A stretch of DNA of 64,000 bases, taken from the NCBI GenBank assembly GCA_913056395.1, contig CAJXMG010000004.1, forward strand, positions 24,706 to 88,705, given 5' to 3'. Under the pieces are notes generated by a model. That model was not told where the DNA came from. It saw only the letters and a list, made by a program, of their open reading frames with translations, and did not search any database. Of the stretch, positions 3,077-61,249 are shown one piece after another (position 1 is the first letter of the stretch; each line of letters starts with the position of its first letter). Source of the stretch: an uncultured bacterium. GTDB lineage: Bacteria > Planctomycetota > UBA8108 > UBA1146. A program made the translations under genes and the position numbers.

Positions 3077-4258
3077 TCAGCCCAGTATCCCGTAGCCGTA
3101 GGTCACTTCTATCGGCGCTCCCTGCTCGAAACGCAGGGGACTGAAGAAGTCGGCCACGAAGGCTCCGGCCGGGGCAGAACCCAGAATGGAGGCGACCCCC
3201 CTGCAGACAGCGGGGGCCATTTTGAAGCCGTGGCCACTGAAACCGCTGACAATCCATGCACCTTCCCGACCGGGTACCGGACCGATGATCGGATGTGAAT
3301 CGGGTGTGACGGTATACAGGGCACCAACGCCACCCCAGGAAGGTGAGAGCCCGTAGTGGGGCAAGCGCTGGGAGAGTTTTTGGCGACAACCCTGAATGAA
3401 CTCGTGGGAGACACCTTCATCGTAGTGATCCGGGTCGTCGACGACGGCATCCGAATCCATATCGAGAAGTCCGACACGGGTCCAGCCCGCCAATTCCGGT
3501 TTCCAGTAGAGACCATGGGTCAGGTCACCGTAGATCAGTCGTCGTTCGTGAGCCCCCGGTGGAGGTTCAAAGAAAGCCTGTTCAGGTCGGATTGCGGTCA
3601 GCGGTAGATCGACCCCAGCTTCCTGTAGCATTTGCCCCGACCATGGACCTGCACAGATCACAACGTTTCCGGCAGCAATCCTTTGTTGGTCATCCAATTC
3701 GACTCCCGTGATACGGGATCCCTCTTCGATCAGCGAGACAACCCTGCGACCGATGAGCACTTCTGTTCCCTGCTCTTCTGCAACAGCAAGGATCTGATTG
3801 ACGGCTTGCACCGGCTGAACATTTCCCGCTTCTGATTCCCAGGCTGCGCATTCGTCATCACGGAAGGTGCCACCCGGTTCCAGTTCCCGGAGCTCTTTGG
3901 CATCGATGATTTTTGTCTTCACTCCCAAACGCTGTTGCAATTCGACATTGCGCTGCAGATTGGGACGATTTTCCTCGGTGCAAATGAAGGCCATGCCCGG
4001 GCGGTGAAAGGAGATGGATCTCCCATGTTCTTCTTCAAAGCGGGAGTACCAGTCGAGCCCCTCACGGGCCATGGCGATGGTGATTTCATGGGAGTAGTGT
4101 TGGCGCAGGATCGCTCCTGATTTTCCGGTGGATCCGGCACCTGCAAAAGACTTCTCGATGAGAAGTACTTTCTCATTCCCATGGCGAGTCAGGTGATAGG
4201 CGAGGGAAGCTCCCATGATGCCTCCACCGATGATCACATGGTCCCAACTCTTCATCAT
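3077..4258 (-). CDS. FAD-dependent oxidoreductase (DAO / sarcosine-oxidase-beta-like)
   Basis: N-terminal Rossmann motif VIIGGGIMGASLAYHL..LIEK, length 393 aa, ATGA overlap with the upstream ATP-grasp gene. Confidence 0.85.
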   Translation of the reverse strand: MMKSWDHVIIGGGIMGASLAYHLTRHGNEKVLLIEKSFAGAGSTGKSGAILRQHYSHEITIAMAREGLDWYSRFEEEHGRSISFHRPGMAFICTEENRPNLQRNVELQQRLGVKTKIIDAKELRELEPGGTFRDDECAAWESEAGNVQPVQAVNQILAVAEEQGTEVLIGRRVVSLIEEGSRITGVELDDQQRIAAGNVVICAGPWSGQMLQEAGVDLPLTAIRPEQAFFEPPPGAHERRLIYGDLTHGLYWKPELAGWTRVGLLDMDSDAVVDDPDHYDEGVSHEFIQGCRQKLSQRLPHYGLSPSWGGVGALYTVTPDSHPIIGPVPGREGAWIVSGFSGHGFKMAPAVCRGVASILGSAPAGAFVADFFSPLRFEQGAPIEVTYGYGILG

Positions 4259-9811: not shown

Positions 9812-11254
9812 CTATTCTGATTGATAGCGTTTGAAGACGATACCCGCAGGAATCCCCGATCCGAACTCGAGATCTCGAACCTTGCCCTGCTCATCACGGC
9901 GGATTTTCAGTCTCAGCCATGAGGGTTTTCCCAGCAGTCGGTCATCTTTGGTCAACTGCAGGGGATAGGATTCGTCTCCCCAATCGACCAGTTCCATTCC
10001 CTGATCACTGGCAACCAGTCGCCAGGTCACCTGCAGCTCGTCGGAGTGGTAGAGACCGGTGAAATCTTCCGCGCTCCATTCACTGACCCATTCCGGTTCT
10101 TTCCGGGGTGAGTTTTCTCTTCGACGGTTCTCCCATTCAAATTTGGGAGCATCCCTGAAGAGATCTTCTGCGATGACTTCACTGGTCAGGCGCAGCACTC
10201 TGGATGGATTGAAGTTGCTGCGATTGGCAAAGCAGAGAAAGACCCAGCCCTCATCAGGGAAGATCCACATCTGTGAGCGGTAGCCGACCCAGGATCCACC
10301 ATGGGACAGCCTGGGAAAGCCTCGATAGGTCGATTCGTCGATGCCAAAGCGATAATCGAGTTCCTGACCATCGTTGAGAGTGAAGGGGCTCAGCAGTCGT
10401 TGCAAAAGACCCGGTTTCCATTGGTCCCGAATCAGGGCATCGGTCCATTTTCCAAAGTCACGAACGGTGGTGTAGATACCGCCATCGCCGACCTGATCGA
10501 GTCCCGTTTCATCCAAACGGTAACGGTTGTTTCCTGAAGGTGAATAACCATTGGCCCGTCGTTTCACCACCTCGGTGGATTCATCATGAAAGTGGGTCTG
10601 ACTCATTTTCAGCGGCTGGAAGATGTTTTTATCGGCAAACTGACGCAGGGTTTTCCCGGACACCCGCTCGCAGATGATGCTGCAAAGGAAATATCCCGAG
10701 TTGCAGTAGGAGTAGCGTTCACCGGGAACAAAATCGAGTCCCCGCTGGCGGCAGATCAGGCGCAGGGCTTCTTCCTTTTCCCAATTGTCCGCCCCCTCGA
10801 TGTCACACATTTGCATCAGTGATGTGTATTCCCGCAGGCCACTGGTGTGGTGCAACAGGTGACGGATGGTGATCTTGTGACCGTGATCGTGGAGTTCCGG
10901 AAGGTAGGTACGGATGTCGGTGTCGAAATCCACGAGGCCTTCATCTTCCAGCAGAAGCATGCATACGGCGGTCACATGTTTGGAAACAGAGGCGATGCGA
11001 AAGACGGTTTGCGGAGTGTTGGCGATGTCATGATCGAGGTTGGCCATGCCGTAGCCCTTGGCGAAAACCGGCTCACCATTTTTGAAAGCGGCGATGGCAC
11101 AGCCTGGATGACCGGGAGAGACGATCGGGTCCATGATTTGATCGACTTGCTCCTCCATCGACTTCGCTTGGGTTTCCTTGACCGATTGACCCATGCAAAA
11201 GGGGGAAAAGGTCAGGTGGGAGATGCACAGAAATAGAAACAATACCGATTTCAT
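9812..11254 (-). CDS. serine hydrolase, beta-lactamase (class C / esterase) fold, secreted
   Basis: Signal peptide; S-x-x-K motif in FRIASVSKHVTA; YSNSGY-like CNSGYF motif. Confidence 0.85.
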   Translation of the reverse strand: MKSVLFLFLCISHLTFSPFCMGQSVKETQAKSMEEQVDQIMDPIVSPGHPGCAIAAFKNGEPVFAKGYGMANLDHDIANTPQTVFRIASVSKHVTAVCMLLLEDEGLVDFDTDIRTYLPELHDHGHKITIRHLLHHTSGLREYTSLMQMCDIEGADNWEKEEALRLICRQRGLDFVPGERYSYCNSGYFLCSIICERVSGKTLRQFADKNIFQPLKMSQTHFHDESTEVVKRRANGYSPSGNNRYRLDETGLDQVGDGGIYTTVRDFGKWTDALIRDQWKPGLLQRLLSPFTLNDGQELDYRFGIDESTYRGFPRLSHGGSWVGYRSQMWIFPDEGWVFLCFANRSNFNPSRVLRLTSEVIAEDLFRDAPKFEWENRRRENSPRKEPEWVSEWSAEDFTGLYHSDELQVTWRLVASDQGMELVDWGDESYPLQLTKDDRLLGKPSWLRLKIRRDEQGKVRDLEFGSGIPAGIVFKRYQSE

Positions 11255-12627
11255 GAGGCCTTCTCTTCACTTCTTCTCAGCTCGACGATGGAATCAGGAC
11301 GAAGAGTAAACATCAGAGCCAGGGGAACCAAAGCTGAAATTCCGGAGATCATGAAGAGGTCCGCCCGCTCCATATCCTCTATTCGTGCGATTTCATTACC
11401 GATGTAGGTCCCAAGGTTACTGACGGCCATGTACAGCGTGAATTGAGTCGCTGCCGAAGTGGTCCAGCAGATTTTCATGTAGAGACTGAAGAGAGCCACA
11501 GTCTGGAATGCGACGAAGCCTTTGAAAACGGGCAGAACCCAAAGGGGGTTGACGGTTGCCGCAGAGAGGAGCAACGAAAAGGAAATCATGGCGATTCCCA
11601 TGCAGGTTCCTCCGATGGCCGCGATCTTTCTTCTTCCCATTCGGTCGCAAAGGAAACCACCCAAGAGTGCTCCTACCAGTTCTCCGCCGATTCCCCACGT
11701 TCCAAATGCCTCAGAGTACTGGCCGGAGGTCCACCCGTAGACATTAATAAACGTATCAGAGGAGAGGGGGATGAAGATGCCCAAGGAGAAGGAAGTGATC
11801 ACCGAGAGCAGGACGGCTGCACCAGTCGTCCATTTCGAAAGAGCCCTGAATAGTTCAGAGAGAACCAATATGGGAGAGCGAAGCGATTCGGCCTGAGTGG
11901 AAGAAGCCTCACCTTTGGACCAGGGAAATCTCTTCTCGCCATCTCGCTCACGCACGAAAAGAACAGCCAACGCGATCAGCAGAATTCCTGTAGCCAAAAC
12001 CTGGAGTGTCACATTGAGTTCGAACTGTTCAATCAGGTAAACCCCTCCCGTGGTACCGACCGTTGTTCCGAACATTTTAGATCCCCACATGAATCCGTTG
12101 ACGCGCCCTCTCTCTGATTCTTCAAGGATATCGACCGCAAGAGCATCCGTGGCTACGTCCTGAAGAGAGGCGAAAGCATTGTGTAGAAAAAACACTCCTG
12201 CGACGAAGATCAGGGTGCTGACTTCGGTGGCAGAACCGCTTTGGTCGGGGCCTGCAACCCATGAAAAGAACCAGGAGGTCCAGGAGGAAACTTCGACCGT
12301 CGTCTCCGGAGCCAGTTTCCCGAGGCCTCCTGCCTGTGAGTTGGCAATCAGGGTCACTGCCATTCCCAACTGGGCCAGGAGAATCCACGGTCGGCGCAAT
12401 CCCAGCGCAGGGAAACGAATCGAATCGATCAGGGGAGCCCAGAGGAACTTGAAGGTCCAGGGCAGGACGGAGAAGCCTGTGATGATGCCGGCCTCATCAC
12501 GTGTGAATCCCTGTTCGATAAAAACAGAGAAGAGAGTGTAGAGAACAAAGCCGTAGGGAAACCCCTGGGCAAAATACAACAGGCAAAGGATCGTCGTACG
12601 AATCCCCCTGTGGGAACTCATGCTCAT
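11251..12627 (-). CDS. MFS transporter, AmpG/PAT-like
   Basis: Multi-TM protein with AmpG-like N-terminus (LYFAQGFPYGF..WTFKFLWAPLID). 4-nt overlap with the downstream hydrolase gene. Confidence 0.75.
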   Translation of the reverse strand: MSMSSHRGIRTTILCLLYFAQGFPYGFVLYTLFSVFIEQGFTRDEAGIITGFSVLPWTFKFLWAPLIDSIRFPALGLRRPWILLAQLGMAVTLIANSQAGGLGKLAPETTVEVSSWTSWFFSWVAGPDQSGSATEVSTLIFVAGVFFLHNAFASLQDVATDALAVDILEESERGRVNGFMWGSKMFGTTVGTTGGVYLIEQFELNVTLQVLATGILLIALAVLFVRERDGEKRFPWSKGEASSTQAESLRSPILVLSELFRALSKWTTGAAVLLSVITSFSLGIFIPLSSDTFINVYGWTSGQYSEAFGTWGIGGELVGALLGGFLCDRMGRRKIAAIGGTCMGIAMISFSLLLSAATVNPLWVLPVFKGFVAFQTVALFSLYMKICWTTSAATQFTLYMAVSNLGTYIGNEIARIEDMERADLFMISGISALVPLALMFTLRPDSIVELRRSEEKAS

Positions 12628-12810
12628 GGGGCCTCCTCAAGATAGGCATTTCACTGGCAGGATAGAGGCCTGAATGGGGGAAGTGCAGGGGGTAGGTCGC
12701 CGGGACAGGGCAACCTTTCCGGGAAATGACCGAAAATTTCTGTCTTTGTCGGCCCGGGAACAGGATTCACCGAAAGAGACGTTGAGCCTGACCCTGAAAG
12801 GAGCGAGATC

Positions 12811-13233
12811 ATGCCGACCCCCACACGACGATTCCTGATTCTGTTCCTTCTGGGAGCCATGGCGACCTCTGCTCTGGCCGGATGTGCGGCCCAAAGCACC
12901 TACGTTCAGGCGATTGGCAGCTGGTCCACCGAATCTCCCGTCGTTACCCAATCCGGGTGGGCTTTCTGGAAAAACCGCATGAGTCGATCCATGAAACCGA
13001 ATGTCCAGTTGACCGTTTACGCTGATGCCAGTTACCGGGTCGAAGTGGCCGGTATGGAATATCAGGGTCAGGCCCAACTGTCCTCACTGTTCGGGGAAGG
13101 TCTGGCCATCAAAACCCGGATCGGTCAGGTCGAGGCCCAGGGACGGATTCGCATCATCGAAGGAAAAAAGATGATCATCGAATCGGAAACGGAAAACCTC
13201 GGCACCGAGCTGACCCTGCATCGCATGCCTTGA
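12811..13233 (+). CDS. small lipoprotein, hypothetical
   Basis: Lipobox LAGC after a hydrophobic N-terminus. 140 aa. Confidence 0.5.
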   Translation: MPTPTRRFLILFLLGAMATSALAGCAAQSTYVQAIGSWSTESPVVTQSGWAFWKNRMSRSMKPNVQLTVYADASYRVEVAGMEYQGQAQLSSLFGEGLAIKTRIGQVEAQGRIRIIEGKKMIIESETENLGTELTLHRMP

Positions 13234-13947: not shown

Positions 13948-15333
13948 TTAGAAGGAAAATTCGCCCTGAGATCTCTGCAGATCGGGGTCTTCTTCGATCG
14001 AAGGGCCGCGTTTGGATGCCATCAAGGTTTGGGTCACCAGCTTGACTACGCCGACATTGACCGCATTTCCCAGTTGTTTGTAGGCCGCTTTGTCGGGAAC
14101 CCCTGATTGGGCGAAGATCTCTCCCGGAATTCCCTGAAGTTTTGCCGCCTCAAGAGGGGTGAGTTTTCGGTATTCTTGGATTCCCCGTCGAACTTGGGGA
14201 CCGACGATGGATGTCTGGGTGATGGCGACGAGGGCGGGCAGATAGGTTGCCGGCTTGACCCGTATTCCACTGGGCCGCATCTGTAAAACCAGATTTTCGA
14301 GAGTTCTTCCAGCCCGGGTCGGATGGGCCTTTCTGGCCTGCCATTCAAAAAACTGCCGACTGAAGGGAAACTCGGGCACCGTAAGATTGAGCGGGCCCCA
14401 GCGCATTTTCTTCCAGCGGTCAATGAAGGTTTTGTTCTGCACATAAAAGGCGGAGTTCTTGCGCAGGAAGTTCGCCTTCCATGGGGGAGTCCCGGCAGGA
14501 ATCTGTGGTCGAGTAAAGAATCGGTCCGCCCAGATGGGAAACCCGGGGAGTTGATCGACCTCAATTTCACGGACAAAGAAATCCCAGGCCGCCAGCCAGG
14601 TCTGTTCCTGCTCTGAAAGACGGTAGTCCGCCACATTTTTGATTTTGGAATCGGGCAGCAGATATTTTTTGATGTTCCAGTGGTCCGGGTTCCATTCTTC
14701 CTTGAAGAGATCCCGGGTCAGGATGGGTGGTGAGCACAGACCTCGAGTATTCCCGTGCCCGACCCTTTCTCCGAGGATAAAGACCCGGTCCCGAACCTGG
14801 GGAGCACCGCCCTTTTCTTCAGGAATCAGATGGGGGGACAGCACCACCGGTTGATCGCAGACCCGGTAGCCGGCTTCGCGAAGGCTTTCGATGATGATGC
14901 GCCAGGTTTCACGATGTCGTGGCCCTGCCAGATTGCGGACATTTTCCAAAACGAGGAATCGGGGTTCTTTGGCCCGAATGATCTCCATGATGTCAAAAAA
15001 CAGGGTGCCCCGGGTTTGGTCACGAATCCCTTCCTGTGCCCCCGATTTGGAGAAGGGCTGACAGGGAAATCCGGCACAAAGAACACTGTGATCCGGAACG
15101 AGGCGGTCGATCTCGTCGAGATCGAGGGGTTCTCCGTCGGGAGTACAGGTCAGACTACGAATGTCCTCGATCATCTGATGGGGTTTCATGGAGGGAAATG
15201 CGGTCTGGTAAACCTGGCGGCATTCCTCATCCAGCTCGACGGTCAAGACACATCTTCCACCCAGTTCTTCCAAGGCATGGTGAAACCCACCAATCCCTGC
15301 GAATAGGTCGATGAATCGGAATGAATTAGGCAT
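13948..15333 (-). CDS. DNA (cytosine-5)-methyltransferase
   Basis: Motif [12 protein letters not shown], motif [10 protein letters not shown], motif VI ENVRNL, motif [14 protein letters not shown], motif X QLGNAVNV. Confidence 0.95.
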
Positions 15334-53647: not shown

Positions 53648-56600
53648 ATGAGGTTCAGTTTCAGAAACTCTCTATTCATGCTCACTCTCCTTCTTGCCCC
53701 CTTCTGTGTTTCAATTTCTGCACAGGGGCAGGCACCGCAGGAGGATTCCCTGGCCCGTCATTACCATCCAGCCACTGGGAAACTCCATTTTCTGGGTGGA
53801 TTGAATCATTCCCCTCTGGGACTGCCGAAAGGGATCACTCCTGACCTTGAAGATCCGTTGCAGGCCCTGCGTATTTACGGTGCTGAGTTTGGAATTCGCT
53901 ACCCGGAGGTTCAACTCCAGTTGTTGCGTACAGAAAAGTGCAACGTGGGTCAGATCCATCACACTTTCCAACAGGTTTACCGCGGAGTGGAAGTGTTGAC
54001 CGGAAATATCAAGGTCCACTTGAAAGCGGATGGTACTCCTCTCTCCATCAACGGAGATTTTTACTCTGTACCCAAAAAGTTGGAGATCGCTCCGAAGATC
54101 GGTTCCGAGCAGGCTTTGGAGCTTGCTGCACGTGAATTGAAGCAAGAACTTCTGATCGAGACCGATCAGCCGCGCCTCGTCATCGTCAACCCGGGTTGGT
54201 ACGGCGATGATCCCATCGATCAGCCGGTCCTCGCTCATCATCTGGTCGCCGAGGGTGACGGAATGATGGCGAAAAACATTCTGGTCGATGCAAGAACAGG
54301 AGTGGTCCTCGATCACTGGCCCGCAGTCCACAGTGCTCTTCTCAGAGAGATCTATGACGGCGCCGGTGGAGGAGGCCTTCCTGGAACCCTCGCCAGAACC
54401 GAGGGATCTCCTGCCAGCGGAGATCTGGATATCGACAACTCCTACGACACTTGCGGGGATCTGTACCGAGTCCTTTCCGATTCACTCGGAAGAGACAGCC
54501 TCGATGGCAATGGCAGCCCCATGATCATCACCGCCAATTGGAGCAGCAACATTTGCCCCAATGCCATTTGGAATGGATCGCAGGGAGCCTTCTGCAATGG
54601 GTTGGGGACCGACGACATCATTGCCCATGAGTTGGCTCATGGCCTGACCCAGTTCACCGCAAACCTGATCTACCAAAACCAGTCGGGTCAGTTGAACGAG
54701 GCGATGTCTGACATCTTTGGTGAGGTGATTGACCTCTACAACGGAAACGCTTCCGTAGCCGGAACCCCCGGAGGAACTCCCTGGCCGGTCCCAGGTACCA
54801 GTGGCTCGGGTCTCGATACCCCAAACACACCGCGTACCGGATGCAGTGACGGATCAGCACGCTGGAGAATGGGAGAGGAATCTTCCATCGGTGCCATCCG
54901 CGACATGTTCTACCCGGAGTGTTTCAATGATCCTCCGAGCACGACGGACCCACTTTACAACCAGAATGCCTGCGGTCCCTTCGACAATGGAGGGGTTCAT
55001 ATCGGCAGTGGTGTTCTGAACCATTCCTTCGCCATGTTGGTGGATGGCAAGACCTACAACGGACAGACCATTACCCCGATTGGCATGACCAAGGCTACTG
55101 CGGTCTACTTCCGTGCTCTTTCAGTCTACATGACGGAGGGAACCAGCTTCCCCCAGGCAGAGATTCATATCAATCAGGCTGCCGCAGATCTGATCAACAC
55201 CAACCCCATCGATCCACGCACCGGCGTGGGTGGAGGAGTTTTCACCCAGGCAGATGCGGACATCGTTGCTTCGGTGATGACAGCAGTGGGCATGTCCGAG
55301 CTGGTTTGTGGTCAGGTACCTCCTGGTCCTCCCCCGGCCAATGACAACTGCGACGCTGCTGTTCCGGTTTTCCTCGGACTGAATGACGTCGACAGCAACA
55401 ACGCCACCACTGGTGGTCCCGCACCTGACGACACTGCTTGCCCGGGCACCTTTATCGGTGATTGTGGCAATGATGTCTGGTACAGCTACACCGCCCCGGA
55501 GAACGGGCTTTTGAGTGTGAGCCTGTGCAGTATCGTCAGCTGGGATACTGACCTGCAGATCTTCGACGGAAACTGTGGTGCCCTAAATCTGATCGCCTGC
55601 AACGGTGACTTTGGGGGTTGCTCCACTTTCACCTCACAAGTCGACAACGTGCCCGTGATCGGCGGCAGTAACTACCTGATCCGTGTTTCCTCCTGGAGTG
55701 ATGGAACCACTGGAACAGGTCAGATGGATGTGACCTTTGTTCCCGATTCTGGTCCAGGTGTAGAGAACTGCACCAACGGAGTGGACGACGACGCCGACGG
55801 TCTCGTCGACTGTGAAGACGCTGACTGTGCAGCCAATCCTGTGTGCATTCCGCCAGCGGCGGGTGACGAGTGTGTCAGTGCGGAAGTCGCCTCTCTGGGA
55901 ACCAATCCGTTCGACAGCACCAACGCCACCACGGGAACCGATCCGATCCCGGATCCTGCGACCTGTAATCAGGGCCTGGGTGACATGCTCGGCGACATAT
56001 GGTTTGAGTATGTACCTGCTGAATCAGGTTCACTCTTCGTGAGTACCTGCTCCCCCGGCAGTTTTGACACCGACCTTGTGGCTTACACCGGATCCTGTGC
56101 TTCATTGACAGTCCTCGCATGCAATGGTGACGTGACGCAAAACACCTCGCCGACTTGTCAGCAGTACTGGTCTGAGTTGACCATCGATGTGATTGCCGGT
56201 GAGACCTACTGGTTCCGTATCGGTGCGTGGGGAACTCCCCATCCTGGTAATGGTCTTCCCGGTCCCGGAGCACTCATTCTTGATCTGACCCCTTCCGGCC
56301 CGGTCGAGGACTGCAGTAACGGATCCGATGACGATGCAGATGGACTCGCAGATTGTGAGGACCCCGATTGCTTGACCGATCCCGCCTGTGTCCCGGCGAT
56401 TCCCGGTGACGAGTGTGACACGGCTGTGGTCGCAGTCCTCGGCTCCAATGCCATCGACACGACAGGTGCAACGACGGGAGCCGACCCCATCGATGACTCG
56501 AACTGTACGGGCACCTTCCTTGGCGAGTTTGTTCAGGACGTCTGGTACCAGTTCACTCCTTCGAGCACCGGCGAGCATGTGATTGCTACTTGTGACACCA

Positions 56601-58456
56601 TCAACTTTGACTCTGACATTCTGGTTTACAGTGGCAGTTGTGGTGCATTGACTTCGATCGCCTGTAATGGTGACGGAACCGGGTGTGCCGGACTCACCAG
56701 CAGTGTTTCTGCCAACCTGAATGCCGGCGAAACGGTCCTGATCCGTGTGGGTGGCTGGAATGCCGCTGCTGTCGGTACCGGAACTCTGGAAATCAGTTCC
56801 GTGGCTCCTCCGCCGCCGCCGGAAAACTGCACCAACGGTGTGGATGATGATCTGGACGGATTGTCGGACTGCGAAGATCCGGATTGTTTTGCAGACCCGG
56901 ATTGCAACTGTCTGCCGATTTCAAATCTTCTTTGCATTCAGGGCAGCGGAACCAGCGTCAATCTCAGCTGGAACAATGGCGAAGCCTATCAGGAGATCTC
57001 TGTCATGAGAGGTGGGGCACAGATTGCCGTGCTTCCAGGCAGCAGCAGCAGTTATGTTGACTCTGGGGTTCCGTTGGGCAATCAGACCTATACGTTGGTC
57101 CCGAGCTGTACCCCGATTCAGCAAGCACCCATGGAGAACTGCAGTGTGGATGTGATTCAGACGATCGGCTTCATGTTCAGTGCCGGAGACGTCGATGGAT
57201 CCTACAGCGCTTCAGGTGCCACCTTTGAATCGGAAATCTCTTTGATGGAGCTGGCCAGCAACGCGGGATTCCCGACCGACACCGCCGGGTTCTCTTTCGG
57301 CCTTGCACACGACAATACCCTCTTTGAGGCGACGGGTGCACAGGCGGTGGGTCCTCTGGCTGCTCTGGATGGAGGAGCGGGTCCTGCCTTCTTCGACGCT
57401 TCAGTTTTTGCAAATGGTATCGGCATCGGCTGTGTTTACGACTTCAGTCTCTCACAGTCGATCCAGTTCACTTCGGCAACCGGCATCGTCTCCGTCGCAT
57501 ATGCGGCTTTACCTGGAGCGCTGTCTGGAGCGAGTGGAACCGTGACCTCCAGTCTCGATTTCGTCCAGACTCTGGGAGCGCCTCCTGTGGAATTGATTGT
57601 CTCGACAGCTGCGGGATCTGCGGTTCCTGCTGGGGGGAACTCCGGTTCCATCTCCCTGAACCCGAGCGGGTTTGTCATGACCGCCGTCGATCAGTCGGTG
57701 GAGTACCCGGAATCCACGGGAGAAGCATCCGTCACTGTTTCGATCACCCTTGAGGAGGATCCCGGAAATACCGGGTTCCCCAATGAAACTCAGGCGTTCT
57801 CATTCGGATTGGTCCATGACCCAGCGGTTTTGGCTGGTCAGGGAATCAATGCGGCCTCGATCCTTACTGCATTGAACGGCAACACGGGACCTGATTTCTT
57901 CGATGTGAACAGTTTCGCAGACGGCATGACCGTGGGTTGCGTTTACACCTTCGTGGGAACAGACGTCCTGACCTTTGCGACTGCCACCGACTTGGTGACC
58001 GTGGATTACTCAACGGTCCCGGCAGGGTTGATCGGAGCGGTTACTCCAACTGAAACCCAGTTGCAGTTCTCGCAATCTTTGGGAACTCCTCCGGTGGAAT
58101 TGGTCGTGGTCGTCGGTGCTGCCTCTCAGGGAGTCCAGGGGGAGACAGGAACCATTACACTGACCCCGGTTACCGGTACAGGATTTGTCCGTGCGGATAT
58201 CAATGACGATGCAGTGGTCAATCTTGCTGACGCAGTCCAGTTGCTGAATGCTCTCTTCCTTGGAGGAGTGACCAACTGTGACGACGCTGCTGACACCAAT
58301 GATGACGAACTGAAGAACATCGCAGATGCGGTTTATCTTCTCAGCTATCTCTTCACCAGTGGCCCGGACATTCCTGAGCCTGGTGGAAATGGAAGCTGCG
58401 GTACTGATCCGGTTGGTGATGCCCTTGATTGTGCTGAGTACAACTCGTGCCCATAA
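53648..58456 (+). CDS. secreted M4 (thermolysin-like) metalloprotease F with 3 Cys-rich beta-sandwich modules, Fn3-like module, 2 cohesin-like modules and dockerin-like C-terminus
   Basis: 1602 aa with a signal peptide. HELAH at aa 327-331 and NEAMSD with Glu351, 20 residues after the second His as in thermolysin. Downstream modules read from the translation. Confidence 0.9.
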   Translation: MRFSFRNSLFMLTLLLAPFCVSISAQGQAPQEDSLARHYHPATGKLHFLGGLNHSPLGLPKGITPDLEDPLQALRIYGAEFGIRYPEVQLQLLRTEKCNVGQIHHTFQQVYRGVEVLTGNIKVHLKADGTPLSINGDFYSVPKKLEIAPKIGSEQALELAARELKQELLIETDQPRLVIVNPGWYGDDPIDQPVLAHHLVAEGDGMMAKNILVDARTGVVLDHWPAVHSALLREIYDGAGGGGLPGTLARTEGSPASGDLDIDNSYDTCGDLYRVLSDSLGRDSLDGNGSPMIITANWSSNICPNAIWNGSQGAFCNGLGTDDIIAHELAHGLTQFTANLIYQNQSGQLNEAMSDIFGEVIDLYNGNASVAGTPGGTPWPVPGTSGSGLDTPNTPRTGCSDGSARWRMGEESSIGAIRDMFYPECFNDPPSTTDPLYNQNACGPFDNGGVHIGSGVLNHSFAMLVDGKTYNGQTITPIGMTKATAVYFRALSVYMTEGTSFPQAEIHINQAAADLINTNPIDPRTGVGGGVFTQADADIVASVMTAVGMSELVCGQVPPGPPPANDNCDAAVPVFLGLNDVDSNNATTGGPAPDDTACPGTFIGDCGNDVWYSYTAPENGLLSVSLCSIVSWDTDLQIFDGNCGALNLIACNGDFGGCSTFTSQVDNVPVIGGSNYLIRVSSWSDGTTGTGQMDVTFVPDSGPGVENCTNGVDDDADGLVDCEDADCAANPVCIPPAAGDECVSAEVASLGTNPFDSTNATTGTDPIPDPATCNQGLGDMLGDIWFEYVPAESGSLFVSTCSPGSFDTDLVAYTGSCASLTVLACNGDVTQNTSPTCQQYWSELTIDVIAGETYWFRIGAWGTPHPGNGLPGPGALILDLTPSGPVEDCSNGSDDDADGLADCEDPDCLTDPACVPAIPGDECDTAVVAVLGSNAIDTTGATTGADPIDDSNCTGTFLGEFVQDVWYQFTPSSTGEHVIATCDTINFDSDILVYSGSCGALTSIACNGDGTGCAGLTSSVSANLNAGETVLIRVGGWNAAAVGTGTLEISSVAPPPPPENCTNGVDDDLDGLSDCEDPDCFADPDCNCLPISNLLCIQGSGTSVNLSWNNGEAYQEISVMRGGAQIAVLPGSSSSYVDSGVPLGNQTYTLVPSCTPIQQAPMENCSVDVIQTIGFMFSAGDVDGSYSASGATFESEISLMELASNAGFPTDTAGFSFGLAHDNTLFEATGAQAVGPLAALDGGAGPAFFDASVFANGIGIGCVYDFSLSQSIQFTSATGIVSVAYAALPGALSGASGTVTSSLDFVQTLGAPPVELIVSTAAGSAVPAGGNSGSISLNPSGFVMTAVDQSVEYPESTGEASVTVSITLEEDPGNTGFPNETQAFSFGLVHDPAVLAGQGINAASILTALNGNTGPDFFDVNSFADGMTVGCVYTFVGTDVLTFATATDLVTVDYSTVPAGLIGAVTPTETQLQFSQSLGTPPVELVVVVGAASQGVQGETGTITLTPVTGTGFVRADINDDAVVNLADAVQLLNALFLGGVTNCDDAADTNDDELKNIADAVYLLSYLFTSGPDIPEPGGNGSCGTDPVGDALDCAEYNSCP
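54626..54700 (+). other. M4 zinc-binding site coding segment (HExxH ... E)
   Basis: cat gag ttg gct cat at 54626-54640. The gag codon for the third ligand in GQLNEAMSDIFGE is at 54698-54700. Confidence 0.85.
57164..58180 (+). other. two tandem cohesin-like modules of protein F (57164-57667 and 57668-58180)
   Basis: GFSFGLAHDNTLF..GGAGPAFF..GIGCVYDF and AFSFGLVHDPAVL..GNTGPDFF..TVGCVYTF. Confidence 0.65.
58181..58453 (+). other. dockerin-like module of protein F
   Basis: DINDDAVVNLAD..LLNALF and DTNDDELKNIAD..LLSYLF, with tail CGTDPVGDALDCAEYNSCP. Confidence 0.8.
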
Positions 58457-60235: not shown

Positions 60236-61249
60236 TCACCGTGGAGGAATCATGGGGTCGGTCACTTCTATCTCCGTATCCCATTTCTTGTTGAGGCGCC
60301 GACCTTTCAATACATGTCTGCGATAGTTTTTCTCAGAGGTTCGTGAAGACTGAAGAGCTGTCGTCAATTCAGACTCGATCTTCTGATCAAAAGCCGACAC
60401 GGGAATATGTGAGATCACACTGGAAGTGAGACCAAATTCTCCGGGTCTGACGATGGAAATCCCCGGTTCTTTTGCCGGCAATCCAATTTGTTTGGCTTCT
60501 TTAGCAGATTTGGTCAATCCCCAGCCAAGTCTTCCACGGAACGGTTCTTTCCATGCGAGTACCCGTAATTTTCTCAGCACGGATTCCGGAACTCGATCTG
60601 CAACCACAAGCAATTGCCGATCGCAGGAGGCGACATTCAGGGATCTGCGCAGATCCTTACAAGTGGGAAGAGGGGGAAGTCCGGAGGTTTTGGGCCTGCC
60701 AGGATACTTCTGGGAGATGGCGTGCATTTCAAGAGCCAGAATGGATGACTCCCAACCCACCGATCCTCCAAAGACCATCTGCGGAGAGCGACCTGATTTA
60801 CTGAGGCGTGTTTTCCCATCGGGAGCGAGAATCACAAAGACGGTGTTTTCCAACTCTCCGGTTCTTCCCCGATACAGGCTTTTAAGGAACTTGCCTTCGG
60901 TGGCATCTTCATAGGTGGCGAGTCGGGCGCAGACAAATCGCTCTGAGAGTTTGATCACTTCCTGGTCGGACCAGAAACTCTGGTCCATTTCCTGTTTGCC
61001 CGGTCACCAAACTCCGGGAATCCCCCTGCACTGAGGGGCTGCGGAAAGGAGCAGGATCGGCTTTCCGGTTCTCTCAGCTTCGGTTTTCGCTGCCTGCCAT
61101 GTTCCGATCCATGCAATTCTTTTCGGGTGTTGGAAACGGTCCTCGATCGGAGAAGGAGATTTCGGCGTTGAAATGGGGTCGTCCCGATTCAACTCTGCGT
61201 CTGTCGCACACAGGCTTGCAAGGAAACTGATTGTCAGCAGATTGAACAT
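60236..61249 (-). CDS. secreted thioredoxin-fold protein interrupted by one in-frame TGA (candidate selenocysteine; alternatively a pseudogene or two ORFs)
   Basis: ORFs 61004..61249 and 60236..60988 are in the same frame (261 nt apart, divisible by 3). Read-through gives ..GKPILLLSAAPQCRGIPGVW-[TGA]-PGKQEMDQSFWSDQEVIKLSERFVCARL.. The N-terminus has a signal peptide. Confidence 0.55.
60968..60986 (-). other. SECIS-like hairpin 17 nt downstream of the in-frame TGA
   Basis: mRNA sense GGACCAGA-GUU-UCUGGUCC, a perfect 8-bp stem with a G/U-containing apical loop about 29-31 nt from the UGA. Confidence 0.45.

Follow-up and report, generated by a model that had tools for sequence, protein, structure and literature searches.

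Gene layout and domain organization

The locus lies on the minus strand of the 64-kb stretch of DNA analysed here (the window), where positions 61249..60236 form one frame of 337 codons plus a terminal stop, interrupted solely by a TGA at 61006-61004. The initial annotation had flagged two open reading frames, 61249..61004 (81 aa, ending at the TGA) and 60988..60236 (250 aa), as parts of a candidate selenoprotein, and we found that the two indeed share a frame and are separated by the TGA and five codons (P-G-K-Q-E). Read through, they give a product with the sequence ...PQCRGIPGVW-*-PGKQEMDQSFWSDQEV..., and tblastn matches to homologues continue across residues 1-337 of this read-through protein, while Cys homologues of full length span both window ORFs. 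The stretch 60236-61249 is a single gene whose product is an exported thioredoxin-like protein of ~36 kDa with two domains, and comparison with its relatives makes it very probable that this is a complete selenoprotein gene with one internal UGA (Sec82), recoded through a bacterial SECIS (bSECIS) element.

The N-terminal residues (61190..61249, minus strand; MFNLLTISFLASLCATDAEL) are hydrophobic and lack a basic n-region; judged by inspection of the sequence and by homologues with canonical signal peptides, such as MIKKTSICLMVLVMTLLAAVNAEE and MRSIQLLALSCAAVVGLARADG, they probably form an export signal. Downstream of it lies a catalytic thioredoxin-like domain of the DsbD-gamma/Thioredoxin_7/AGR type (~residues 45-180; 60710..61117, minus strand), assigned from Pfam, a structure model and Foldseek, and then a second, 'b-type' thioredoxin-like domain without an active-site motif (~residues 190-305; 60335..60682, minus strand), placed by the model and Foldseek and followed by C-terminal helices. 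The structure model is that of a Cys homologue, P0022 (40% identical to the window protein; pLDDT 94, pTM 0.90), and contains two tandem thioredoxin-like domains. Pfam PF13899 (Thioredoxin_7) matched residues 46-111 below threshold (E = 3.2e-5; 24.4 bits against a gathering cutoff of 27), and a precomputed PF13899 match exists in two Cys-form homologues. The second domain is covered by no Pfam family, Pfam is blank for all truncated homologues, and a profile search of PDB sequences returned 0 matches.

Two small genes, one for an 81-aa secreted peptide and one for a 250-aa cytoplasmic protein started from the ATG at 60988, would agree with the annotation given by all gene callers and with the position of that ATG five codons past the TGA. 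Cys-form homologues, however, are single ORFs across both parts, and on the homologue model the TGA would split the thioredoxin fold between the active-site loop that follows beta1 and the start of helix 1, so that neither product alone would be expected to fold. The conserved ATG is, moreover, part of the foot of the predicted SECIS stem, supplying the U of a U.G closing pair and the G of the first stem pair, and we consider a pair of separate genes extremely unlikely.

Conservation of the UGA codon and its downstream hairpin

The codon at 61004..61006 (minus strand), predicted to be read as Sec82 within the motif W-U-P-G-K, is strictly conserved among Sec forms. Including the window, 86 of 86 carry TGA in exactly this column (85/85 other TGA-bearing homologous loci found), at protein identities of 36-88% and mostly in MAGs assigned to Planctomycetota and Verrucomicrobiota, and TGA is present in 80/80 of the best genome loci and in 4 further loci. 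Relatives of Mariniblastus, Rhodopirellula and Gemmataceae are among the loci, and the closest MAGs are JAPOLY01, JACETR01, JAAXJX01 and NHDG01/TMED53. Protein conservation extends over both flanks of the TGA, with the motif ...KPILL.SAAP.C.G[VI][PS]G.W-*-PGK... kept. Another 15 loci have TGT or TGC at the Sec82 column and 10 full-length database proteins also have Cys there; all non-TGA homologues have Cys at this position, a classic Sec/Cys pair, and the alignment contains no natural gene boundary at the column. Sec forms dominate loci with marine-type record names, and the Cys forms come from loci with lake-type names.

A lone in-frame stop in an otherwise intact frame, with Cys homologues in existence, could also reflect a recent nonsense mutation that turned a Cys-containing thioredoxin-like gene into a pseudogene. 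This reading is refuted by the recurrence of the same TGA in at least two phyla, in every one of the 85 other TGA-bearing loci, with conserved flanks on both sides, and by a downstream hairpin that co-varies with the TGA, since a pseudogene would receive no such upkeep; we attach practically no probability to it. Sequencing or assembly error, with TGC or TGT as the true codon, deserves just as little credence: the source is metagenome-derived and TGA is one base away from either codon, but the exact 250-aa product and the same 81+250 split occur on at least four contigs assembled independently from samples in ENA and JGI, from which it follows that the TGA is not a sequencing error, and every orthologue in the window's clade keeps it. 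The window's contig is contained in ENA ERZ27241904 and JGI 3300000422.

Ordinary stops in the window are most often TGA, which ends 27 of 45 long ORFs. Recoding at 61006-61004 would therefore be site-specific, and genome-wide reassignment of TGA is ruled out. When 70 in-frame TGA read-through candidates were scanned across the window, the best hairpin was the one that follows the TGA at 61006-61004; the only other plausible candidate, a TGA at 12639 (minus strand), was rejected as an MFS transporter gene preceded by a non-coding open frame.

The putative bSECIS hairpin lies within the coding sequence at 60967..60987 (minus strand). The initial annotation had drawn a structure GGACCAGA-GUU-UCUGGUCC, which we confirmed at 60986-60968, beginning 17 nt after the UGA, with a stem of 8 bp (60986-60979 paired with 60975-60968), a U.G closing pair (60987/60967) and an apical GUU loop (60978-60976) that occupies, as claimed, nt 29-31 with the U of the UGA as nt 1. 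The published bSECIS model uses four criteria, namely a loop G-U, a stem, the spacing between UGA and loop, and an MFE of <= -7.5 kcal/mol (PMC13188914), and the window element agrees with all of them, having a GUU loop, a stem of 8-9 bp, a UGA-to-loop distance of 25 nt and an MFE of -15.1 kcal/mol. Like the bacterial SECIS consensus (bSECISearch model; E. coli fdhF type), it is located in the coding sequence right after the UGA and has a 3-nt apical loop beginning G-U on an 8-9 bp stem; unlike that consensus, its stem is perfect, without a bulged U. The stability of the window hairpin on its own does not exceed chance (shuffles, -12.1 +/- 2.7 kcal/mol; z = -1.1; 27 of 200 shuffles as stable). 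Rfam at gathering thresholds gave no match within the 64-kb window, and the covariance-model check suggested earlier for the SECIS region, run with Rfam under permissive settings, came out negative, with no curated SECIS match and only a chance snoRNA (E = 6.5).

Taken across the family, the comparative evidence for the TGA and hairpin is far beyond chance. The hairpin is in register, with 7-8 of 8 pairs, in each of the 85 TGA forms that were scored (the window and 84 homologous loci), whereas it is absent from every Cys form, where an average of 4.1 of 8 pairs can form; mean dG is -10.7 kcal/mol in TGA forms versus -2.3 in Cys forms. Standard pairs fill 94.3% of pair cells and double (compensatory) changes were found at five of the eight pairs, including swaps from A-U to C-G in 17 sequences and from G-C to A-U in 18, values that 0/500 shuffles attained and that compare with 24-57% for slid registers. 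The same constraint is visible in the protein, where the amino-acid pairs R/L (AGG/CUG) and Q/W (CAG/UGG) co-vary in Sec forms as a result of base pairing between their codons within the SECIS stem, while in Cys forms this peptide segment varies freely; a coding-region RNA element is thereby seen to constrain protein sequence. With its agreement with the published model and its perfect tracking of TGA versus Cys, the hairpin bears out the SECIS-like character originally ascribed to it and, together with the conserved TGA column and the Sec/Cys pair, supports the candidate selenoprotein.

The genes selA, selB, selC and selD have been documented in some Planctomycetes (PMC4807772). Within the 64-kb window we found neither selA, selB nor selD with E. 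coli SelA, SelB and SelD probes, nor any tRNA with ARAGORN. In two homologous loci (L064 and L071) the gene is immediately preceded, on its own strand, by one for a full SelB (GTP_EFTU, Beta-barrel_SelB, SelB-wing_2/3), a SelB-wing_3 domain is located at the edge of another (L021), and in a fourth (L046) a tRNA-Sec was detected 1.65 kb upstream of the gene (ARAGORN; Rfam RF01852, 70 bits). A scan of the genome collection for tRNA-Sec of the L046 type, using the anticodon arm and T arm, retrieved many phyla, with the window's clade absent among the matches listed (L105-L184). The three conditions named in the initial annotation as refuting a selenoprotein, so far as the data reached, each fell in its favour: homologues have TGA or Cys at the column, independent assemblies share the TGA, and Sec machinery adjoins the gene in four related genomes.

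Downstream structures can stimulate read-through generally, and with Sec machinery not found in the window the UGA might be decoded without Sec, for example by near-cognate insertion of Trp or Cys stimulated by the hairpin. Such read-through is very unlikely in our view: wherever a homologue lacks the TGA it has Cys in this column, the hairpin fits a SelB-type bSECIS in its loop G-U, spacing and stem, and selB or tRNA-Sec adjoin the gene in four related genomes. In the selenoprotein reading, which we prefer, SelB with Sec-tRNA(Sec) would recognise the GGACCAGA-GUU-UCUGGUCC hairpin 17 nt downstream of the UGA and deliver Sec at 61006-61004 in place of termination, a mechanism that we argue from the comparative data.

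Fold, active site and putative chemistry

Hhalign and the homologue model together put Sec82 at the N-terminal end of helix 1, where CxxC thioredoxins have their nucleophilic Cys. The P0022 model has its Cys at a helix N-cap, immediately before helix 31-41, and an hhalign alignment with DsbD-gamma, weak at E = 0.05, puts the W-C of the family on W-C461 and its Lys on C464 (CVAC). These results uphold the earlier placement of the TGA at the nucleophilic first Cys of a motif of DsbD-gamma/Thioredoxin_7 type, and the accompanying details also proved right, in that the resolving Cys is replaced (U-P-G-K), a Cys lies 8 residues upstream of the TGA (C74 versus residue 82), and the E. coli DsbD motif given for comparison, WCVACKEFEKYTFSDPQV, is exact. 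The motif reads C-x7-U-P-G-K, with Lys in place of the second CxxC Cys in all members, and the pattern W-C-x-x-C is not found. Cys74 (codon TGC, 61028..61030, minus strand) is present in 85/86 Sec forms and 15/15 Cys forms and sits, according to hhalign, in an 8-residue insertion relative to DsbD-gamma. A further Cys, Cys107, in the motif FVC-x-R-L on a beta-strand of the catalytic domain (60929..60931, minus strand), is invariant in 101/101 full-length sequences and also in alignments A1, A4 and A5, and an extra Cys209 occurs in 60/86 Sec forms and in 0 Cys forms.

We derive the relationship to DsbD-gamma from the fold, the sub-threshold Pfam match and the weak hhalign alignment. Both are exported thioredoxin folds in which a strand K-P-[IV]-L-L precedes W-[C/U] at the helix N-cap, and they also agree in the helix that follows (..F/W-S-D-x-x-V); Foldseek aligned the P0022 model with DsbD-gamma (1uc7) over 118 columns at a target-normalised TM of 0.59, an rmsd of 3.2 A and a probability of 1.00, and also matched it to 2fwe and 4ip1 and, with a target-normalised TM of ~0.6, to 2fwh and AGR2 (9i3u). 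In contrast to DsbD-gamma, the window family has a second thioredoxin-like domain and C-terminal helices, has no fused DsbD membrane domain, and carries U-P-G-K for CxxC together with the Cys-bearing 8-residue insertion before the Trp.

Matches to known thioredoxin-like selenoproteins stayed below the cutoffs. The best NCBIfam match, over residues 46-114, was to NF041199, a Trx7/PDZ (seleno)protein likewise of Thioredoxin_7 type, but at 13.6 bits against a cutoff of 300, with no PDZ match and with Sec at the first position of the motif; the motif catalogued for NF041199 is CxxU, with Sec at the second position (PMC13188914). NF041383, VPGUxxT (OS_HP5), is a thioredoxin-like selenoprotein that also has Pro-Gly just before the active site, although its motif is V-P-G-U-x-x-T as against V-P-G-x-W-U-P-G-K in the window; the window protein gave no match to it and the homologue P0023 scored 14.2 bits against a cutoff of 275 (E = 0.025).

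The overall architecture resembles a eukaryotic set comprising AGR2 (9i3u), AGR3 (3ph9), ERp44 (5hqp, 2r2j) and the b'-a' part of PDI (3wt2), all matched by Foldseek, in which, as in the a-b arrangement of PDI, one redox residue in the CxxC frame is followed by a non-catalytic thioredoxin-like domain. Two-domain matches to 3wt2, 2b5e and 5hqp had E values of 2e-5 to 4e-4, and ERp57 was matched over two domains as well. Unlike the window family, these are proteins of the eukaryotic ER with Cys rather than Sec; they have no detectable sequence relationship to it, and superposition of both domains gave an rmsd of 15-18 A. The modelled PDI-like a-b arrangement is an architectural resemblance only. 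AGR2 and ERp44 use CxxS-type motifs.

We infer that the protein may act as a periplasmic or secreted seleno-oxidoreductase, in which Sec82 would attack substrate disulfides or oxidants and be resolved either by Cys74, the candidate resolving residue on sequence grounds, with which it would form a selenenylsulfide (C-x7-U), or by a thiol from outside the protein. Resolution of this kind would resemble that of the single-Cys thioredoxin-fold proteins AGR2 and ERp44, and by analogy with the b-type domains of PDI the second domain may serve in substrate binding. We regard this specific redox mechanism as quite possible, if somewhat short of probable. One locus in the window's own clade (L004) has His in place of Cys74 while keeping the TGA and the hairpin, which counts against the C74-U82 selenenylsulfide specifically.

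A true selenoprotein with other chemistry, either a Sec peroxidase or a periplasmic protein that binds metals or metalloids or traffics selenium, would sit well with the missing CxxC resolving Cys (U-P-G-K), the His of L004, the restriction of Cys209 to Sec forms, and the adjacency of selB or selC in some genomes, which could hint at a role in selenium metabolism. Against it, no peroxiredoxin or GPx signal was found with Pfam or NCBIfam, the nearest folds are the DsbD-gamma, AGR and PDI oxidoreductases, and there are no conserved metal-handling neighbours; we consider it the less likely reading, though one of real weight. No neighbour is conserved family-wide across 99 loci, so the neighbourhood gives no support for any particular substrate or pathway. 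Synteny is confined to the window's clade (Metallophos/Laminin_G, DUF4261, DinB_2 and LOG).

Family extent, annotation and significance

In an exhaustive library search, the best 150 representatives all begin with the Met that closely follows the TGA, a pattern that marks the family as systematically truncated in gene calling. Public gene calls of the family consist either of the 81-aa and 250-aa ORFs or of the 250-aa fragment alone, NCBI labels the fragments 'hypothetical' or 'thioredoxin family protein', and the public calls compared for the family are all wrong. No curated NCBIfam selenoprotein family matches; the selenoprotein families of Haft & Tolstoy 2025 are reportedly included in NCBIfam. 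Nor did we find a matching family in the 2026 catalogue of 119 selenoprotein families (PMC13188914), the GOS table (PMC2398784), deep-Sep (PMC12013277) or the Porphyra planctomycete paper (PMC4807772). The family is widespread and mostly marine; gene callers break it at the UGA, and we did not find it in current selenoprotein catalogues.

We tentatively propose, as a possibility rather than a probability, that the locus represents an uncatalogued family (~450 clusters at 50% identity, nearly all with Sec and all mis-annotated as 250-aa fragments) with a new active-site design, in which the CxxC nucleophile would be a single Sec (W-U-P-G-K) and its partner a Cys carried by an inserted loop 8 residues upstream (C-x7-U selenenylsulfide), within an exported, PDI-like a-b scaffold, and that the family has a part in upholding the Sec-decoding trait. 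U-x-x-K with a distal Cys is an unusual redox motif, and the family offers a clean natural experiment in Sec/Cys exchange. With a family model that includes the Sec position, hundreds of MAG annotations would be corrected, and phyla with little-described selenoproteomes would gain a selenoprotein. If the proposal is true, the frequency of the family in marine Planctomycetota and Verrucomicrobiota, together with its occasional linkage to selB or tRNA-Sec, would place it among the proteins that maintain the Sec-decoding trait.

Reading frame and gene calls around the in-frame TGA

The gene at 61249..60236 on the minus strand very probably encodes a selenoprotein. Rechecking of the window sequence confirmed all coordinates and sequence statements of the initial annotation: a single 337-codon frame is interrupted only by the TGA at 61006-61004 (minus strand; codon 82), which follows 81 codons comprising a hydrophobic N-terminus and then ...TGKPILLLSAAPQCRGIPGVW, and precedes PGKQE and the ATG used as the start of a called 250-aa ORF. 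Nearly all of the 172 relatives found in a search of 5.8 billion proteins are ~250 aa long and confined to the region downstream of the TGA, with a minority of longer proteins covering the entire frame; 10 whole-frame relatives carry Cys at the TGA column, within the motif C-x-G-V-[SP]-G-x-W-C-P-G-K. Of 453 related clusters in an exhaustive library of 1.84 billion representatives, the best 150 all start at the Met right after the TGA (150/150). At least four independent contigs carry the exact window product, with an identical 81+250 split call, and annotation in NCBI records covers the truncated fragment only.

One-genome-per-species collections yielded 201 homologous loci, and TGA stands exactly at this column in all of the best 80 that we examined (mostly Planctomycetota and Verrucomicrobiota MAGs, 36-88% protein identity). 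A second scan with Cys-form seeds added 15 loci with TGT/TGC and four further TGA loci, so that the column holds TGA or Cys in these homologues, the pattern the initial annotation had looked for. Because of these protein relatives, TGA/Cys loci, clusters and independent contigs, we excluded three other explanations of the split frame: a pseudogene, two separate adjoining genes, and a sequencing error at the TGA.

In one homologue, P0019 (L225 3001-4260), the Sec column reads TTA (Leu), one G-to-T change from TGA, which is why this gene is called full-length. Its downstream SECIS hairpin (GGACAGGAGUUACCUGUCC) is still intact; either this Sec-form gene has very recently mutated from Sec to Leu, or the TTA is a sequencing error. 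A Verrucomicrobiota MAG (L025) carries two tandem paralogues, at 669 and 1791, both of which have a TGA and a hairpin of their own.

Covariation in the probable SECIS hairpin

The SECIS-like hairpin of the initial annotation, GGACCAGA-GUU-UCUGGUCC, was exactly placed at 60986-60968 (minus strand), starting 17 nt past the UGA with its loop at nt 29-31. Taken by itself its stability is no better than chance (z = -1.1), and an Rfam search of the window and SECIS region found no matching model. The four bacterial SECIS (bSECIS) criteria quoted in a 2026 review (PMC13188914), a 3-nt loop starting G-U, a stem of 8-9 bp, 25 nt from UGA to loop and an MFE of -7.5 kcal/mol or lower, all hold for the window element (4/4). 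Across an ungapped alignment of 79 sequences, 94.3% of pair cells hold standard pairs, and both sides have changed in five of the eight stem pairs, including A-U to C-G (17 sequences) and G-C to A-U (18); none of 500 shuffles reached the observed values, and sliding the register lowers pairing to 24-57%. All 85 scored TGA forms (84 homologous loci plus the window) retain 7-8 of 8 pairs, with a mean dG of -10.7 kcal/mol, versus a mean of 4.1 pairs and -2.3 kcal/mol in the 15 Cys forms. The peptide encoded over the hairpin is strongly conserved in Sec forms as M-D-[RQ]-S-F-[LW]-S, with R (AGG) pairing with L (CUG) and Q (CAG) with W (UGG) in the stem, whereas the same segment varies freely in Cys forms (IDNGWLL, IDSTYLH). 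We consider this comparative evidence, drawn from aligned sequences, decisive for the RNA element.

Fold, active site and proposed mechanism

Profile searches gave only a sub-threshold Thioredoxin_7 match in Pfam (E = 3.2e-5, 24.4 vs 27 bits) and nothing above cutoff in NCBIfam, where faint partial matches to the curated selenoprotein families Trx7/PDZ, VPGUxxT and TsoB all fell far below. A structure model of the Cys homologue P0022 (40% identical to the window protein; 117-sequence alignment; pLDDT 94, pTM 0.90) has two thioredoxin-like domains in tandem and then helices at the C-terminal end. Foldseek matched the two-domain arrangement to PDI b'-a', ERp44 and ERp57, and the first domain to AGR2, AGR3 and the C-terminal domain of E. 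coli DsbD (DsbD-gamma; 1uc7, rmsd 3.2 A). The DsbD motif given in the initial annotation, WCVACKEFEKYTFSDPQV, is correct, and its placement of the TGA at the nucleophilic Cys is supported: a weak hhalign alignment with DsbD-gamma (E = 0.05) sets W-[C/U] opposite W-C461, and the equivalent Cys in the P0022 model directly precedes helix 31-41. In that alignment the family differs from DsbD-gamma by a Lys at the C464 position and by an 8-residue insertion bearing a conserved upstream Cys.

Among 101 full-length read-through sequences, U/C82 and Cys107 are each invariant (101/101) and Cys74 is present in 100; homologues have canonical signal peptides. Cys209 (window codon 60623-60625, minus strand; second domain, NVA[AS]-C-D) occurs in 60 of 86 Sec forms, but the 15 Cys forms all have Ala there. 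The exception at position 74 is L004, a locus of the window's clade (72% identical), which reads PQHLGVPGVW-TGA-PGK at ~3205-3231, with His for Cys74 and both TGA and hairpin kept.

UGA82 is very probably decoded as Sec through a SelB-type bSECIS element, which places Sec82 where the nucleophile sits in an exported thioredoxin fold resembling DsbD-gamma; both points are supported by the comparative evidence. The product may be a periplasmic or secreted seleno-oxidoreductase that dispenses with the CxxC resolving Cys, its selenenylsulfide presumably being resolved by Cys74 (C-x7-U) or an external thiol, and substrate binding would fall to its second domain, of b type. The His in L004 argues against an obligatory Cys74-Sec82 selenenylsulfide, and because of this variant, and since we found no conserved gene neighbour across loci, our confidence in the functional part is modest: the specific redox mechanism is tentative, its likelihood a little short of even, and a role as a peroxidase, or in metal or selenium handling, is possible.

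Selenocysteine machinery, distribution and novelty

The 64-kb window contains no tRNA and no selA, selB or selD. Complete Sec gene sets have been reported for some Planctomycetes (PMC4807772). TGA is its commonest ordinary stop, ending 27 of 45 long ORFs, and recoding would therefore be site-specific. Within the window's clade (L001-L017, 52-88% identity) TGA and hairpin are both kept, with compensatory changes, a persistence that would be difficult to account for unless Sec decoding works in these genomes. In relatives, a complete SelB (GTP_EFTU, Beta-barrel_SelB, SelB-wing_2/3) is encoded immediately upstream on the same strand in two Verrucomicrobiales loci (L064 and L071, both 848-2707), a SelB C-terminus lies upstream at the edge of a Planctomycetota locus (L021 7-294), and tRNA-Sec lies 1.65 kb upstream in another (L046 1254-1353; ARAGORN and Rfam RF01852, 70 bits). 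Such linkage of selB (three loci) and tRNA-Sec (one) exceeds expectation for single-copy genes across ~600 kb of flanking sequence. It is a hint that some PVC bacteria cluster the selenoprotein gene with Sec-machinery genes. Together with the TGA/Cys column and hairpin covariation, these neighbours bear out the original selenoprotein reading.

Elsewhere in the window, a 148-codon open frame (12637-13083, minus strand) meets a TGA that is three codons short of the start of an MFS transporter gene (11251-12627); with no family match and a junk-like translation, we took it for a non-coding leader and rejected it as a second selenoprotein. A 1602-aa secreted thermolysin-type (M4) metallopeptidase (53648-58456, plus strand), carrying an FTP propeptide as well as galactose-binding-like (T9SS-associated) domains, is encoded about 1.8 kb away from the selenoprotein gene. 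A C-5 cytosine DNA methyltransferase (13948-15333, minus strand; PF00145, E = 8e-63) adjoins a 183-aa ORF with no family match, and may represent a restriction-modification locus or an orphan methylase.

Judged by record names only, there is an apparent marine-Sec/freshwater-Cys split: many MAGs with Sec forms (L001-L080) bear marine names (TMED, ALOHA, ANT, FRAM, ETNP), and Cys forms (L081-L096) come almost only from MAGs whose isolate names suggest lakes or other non-marine settings (Erken, Umea, Loclat, Ja1, Tobar), besides MAGs labelled Fimbriimonas and Chthonomonas. Three Pirellula-type Cys forms with lake-type isolate names (P0102, P0108 and P0082) have an extra N-terminal ~130 residues with EF-hand matches (PF13405, PF00036) and weak NCBIfam matches to lanmodulin and XopAW, a region missing from Sec forms. 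MAGs that bear the labels Candidatus Melainabacteria and Candidatus Obscuribacter (L097 2160, L098 3151), far outside the PVC group, also carry Sec forms with intact hairpins, which suggests horizontal transfer or mis-binning.

We found no matching family in the 119-family catalogue of 2026, GOS tables, deep-Sep or NCBIfam release 20. One Planctomycete has a split candidate, annotated as 'hypothetical' and accompanied by a SECIS, that might belong to this family; it is listed without a family description (PMC4807772 Table S9). In its recoding mechanism and its thioredoxin fold the family follows the standard of bacterial selenoproteins; its active-site motif and architecture are unusual.
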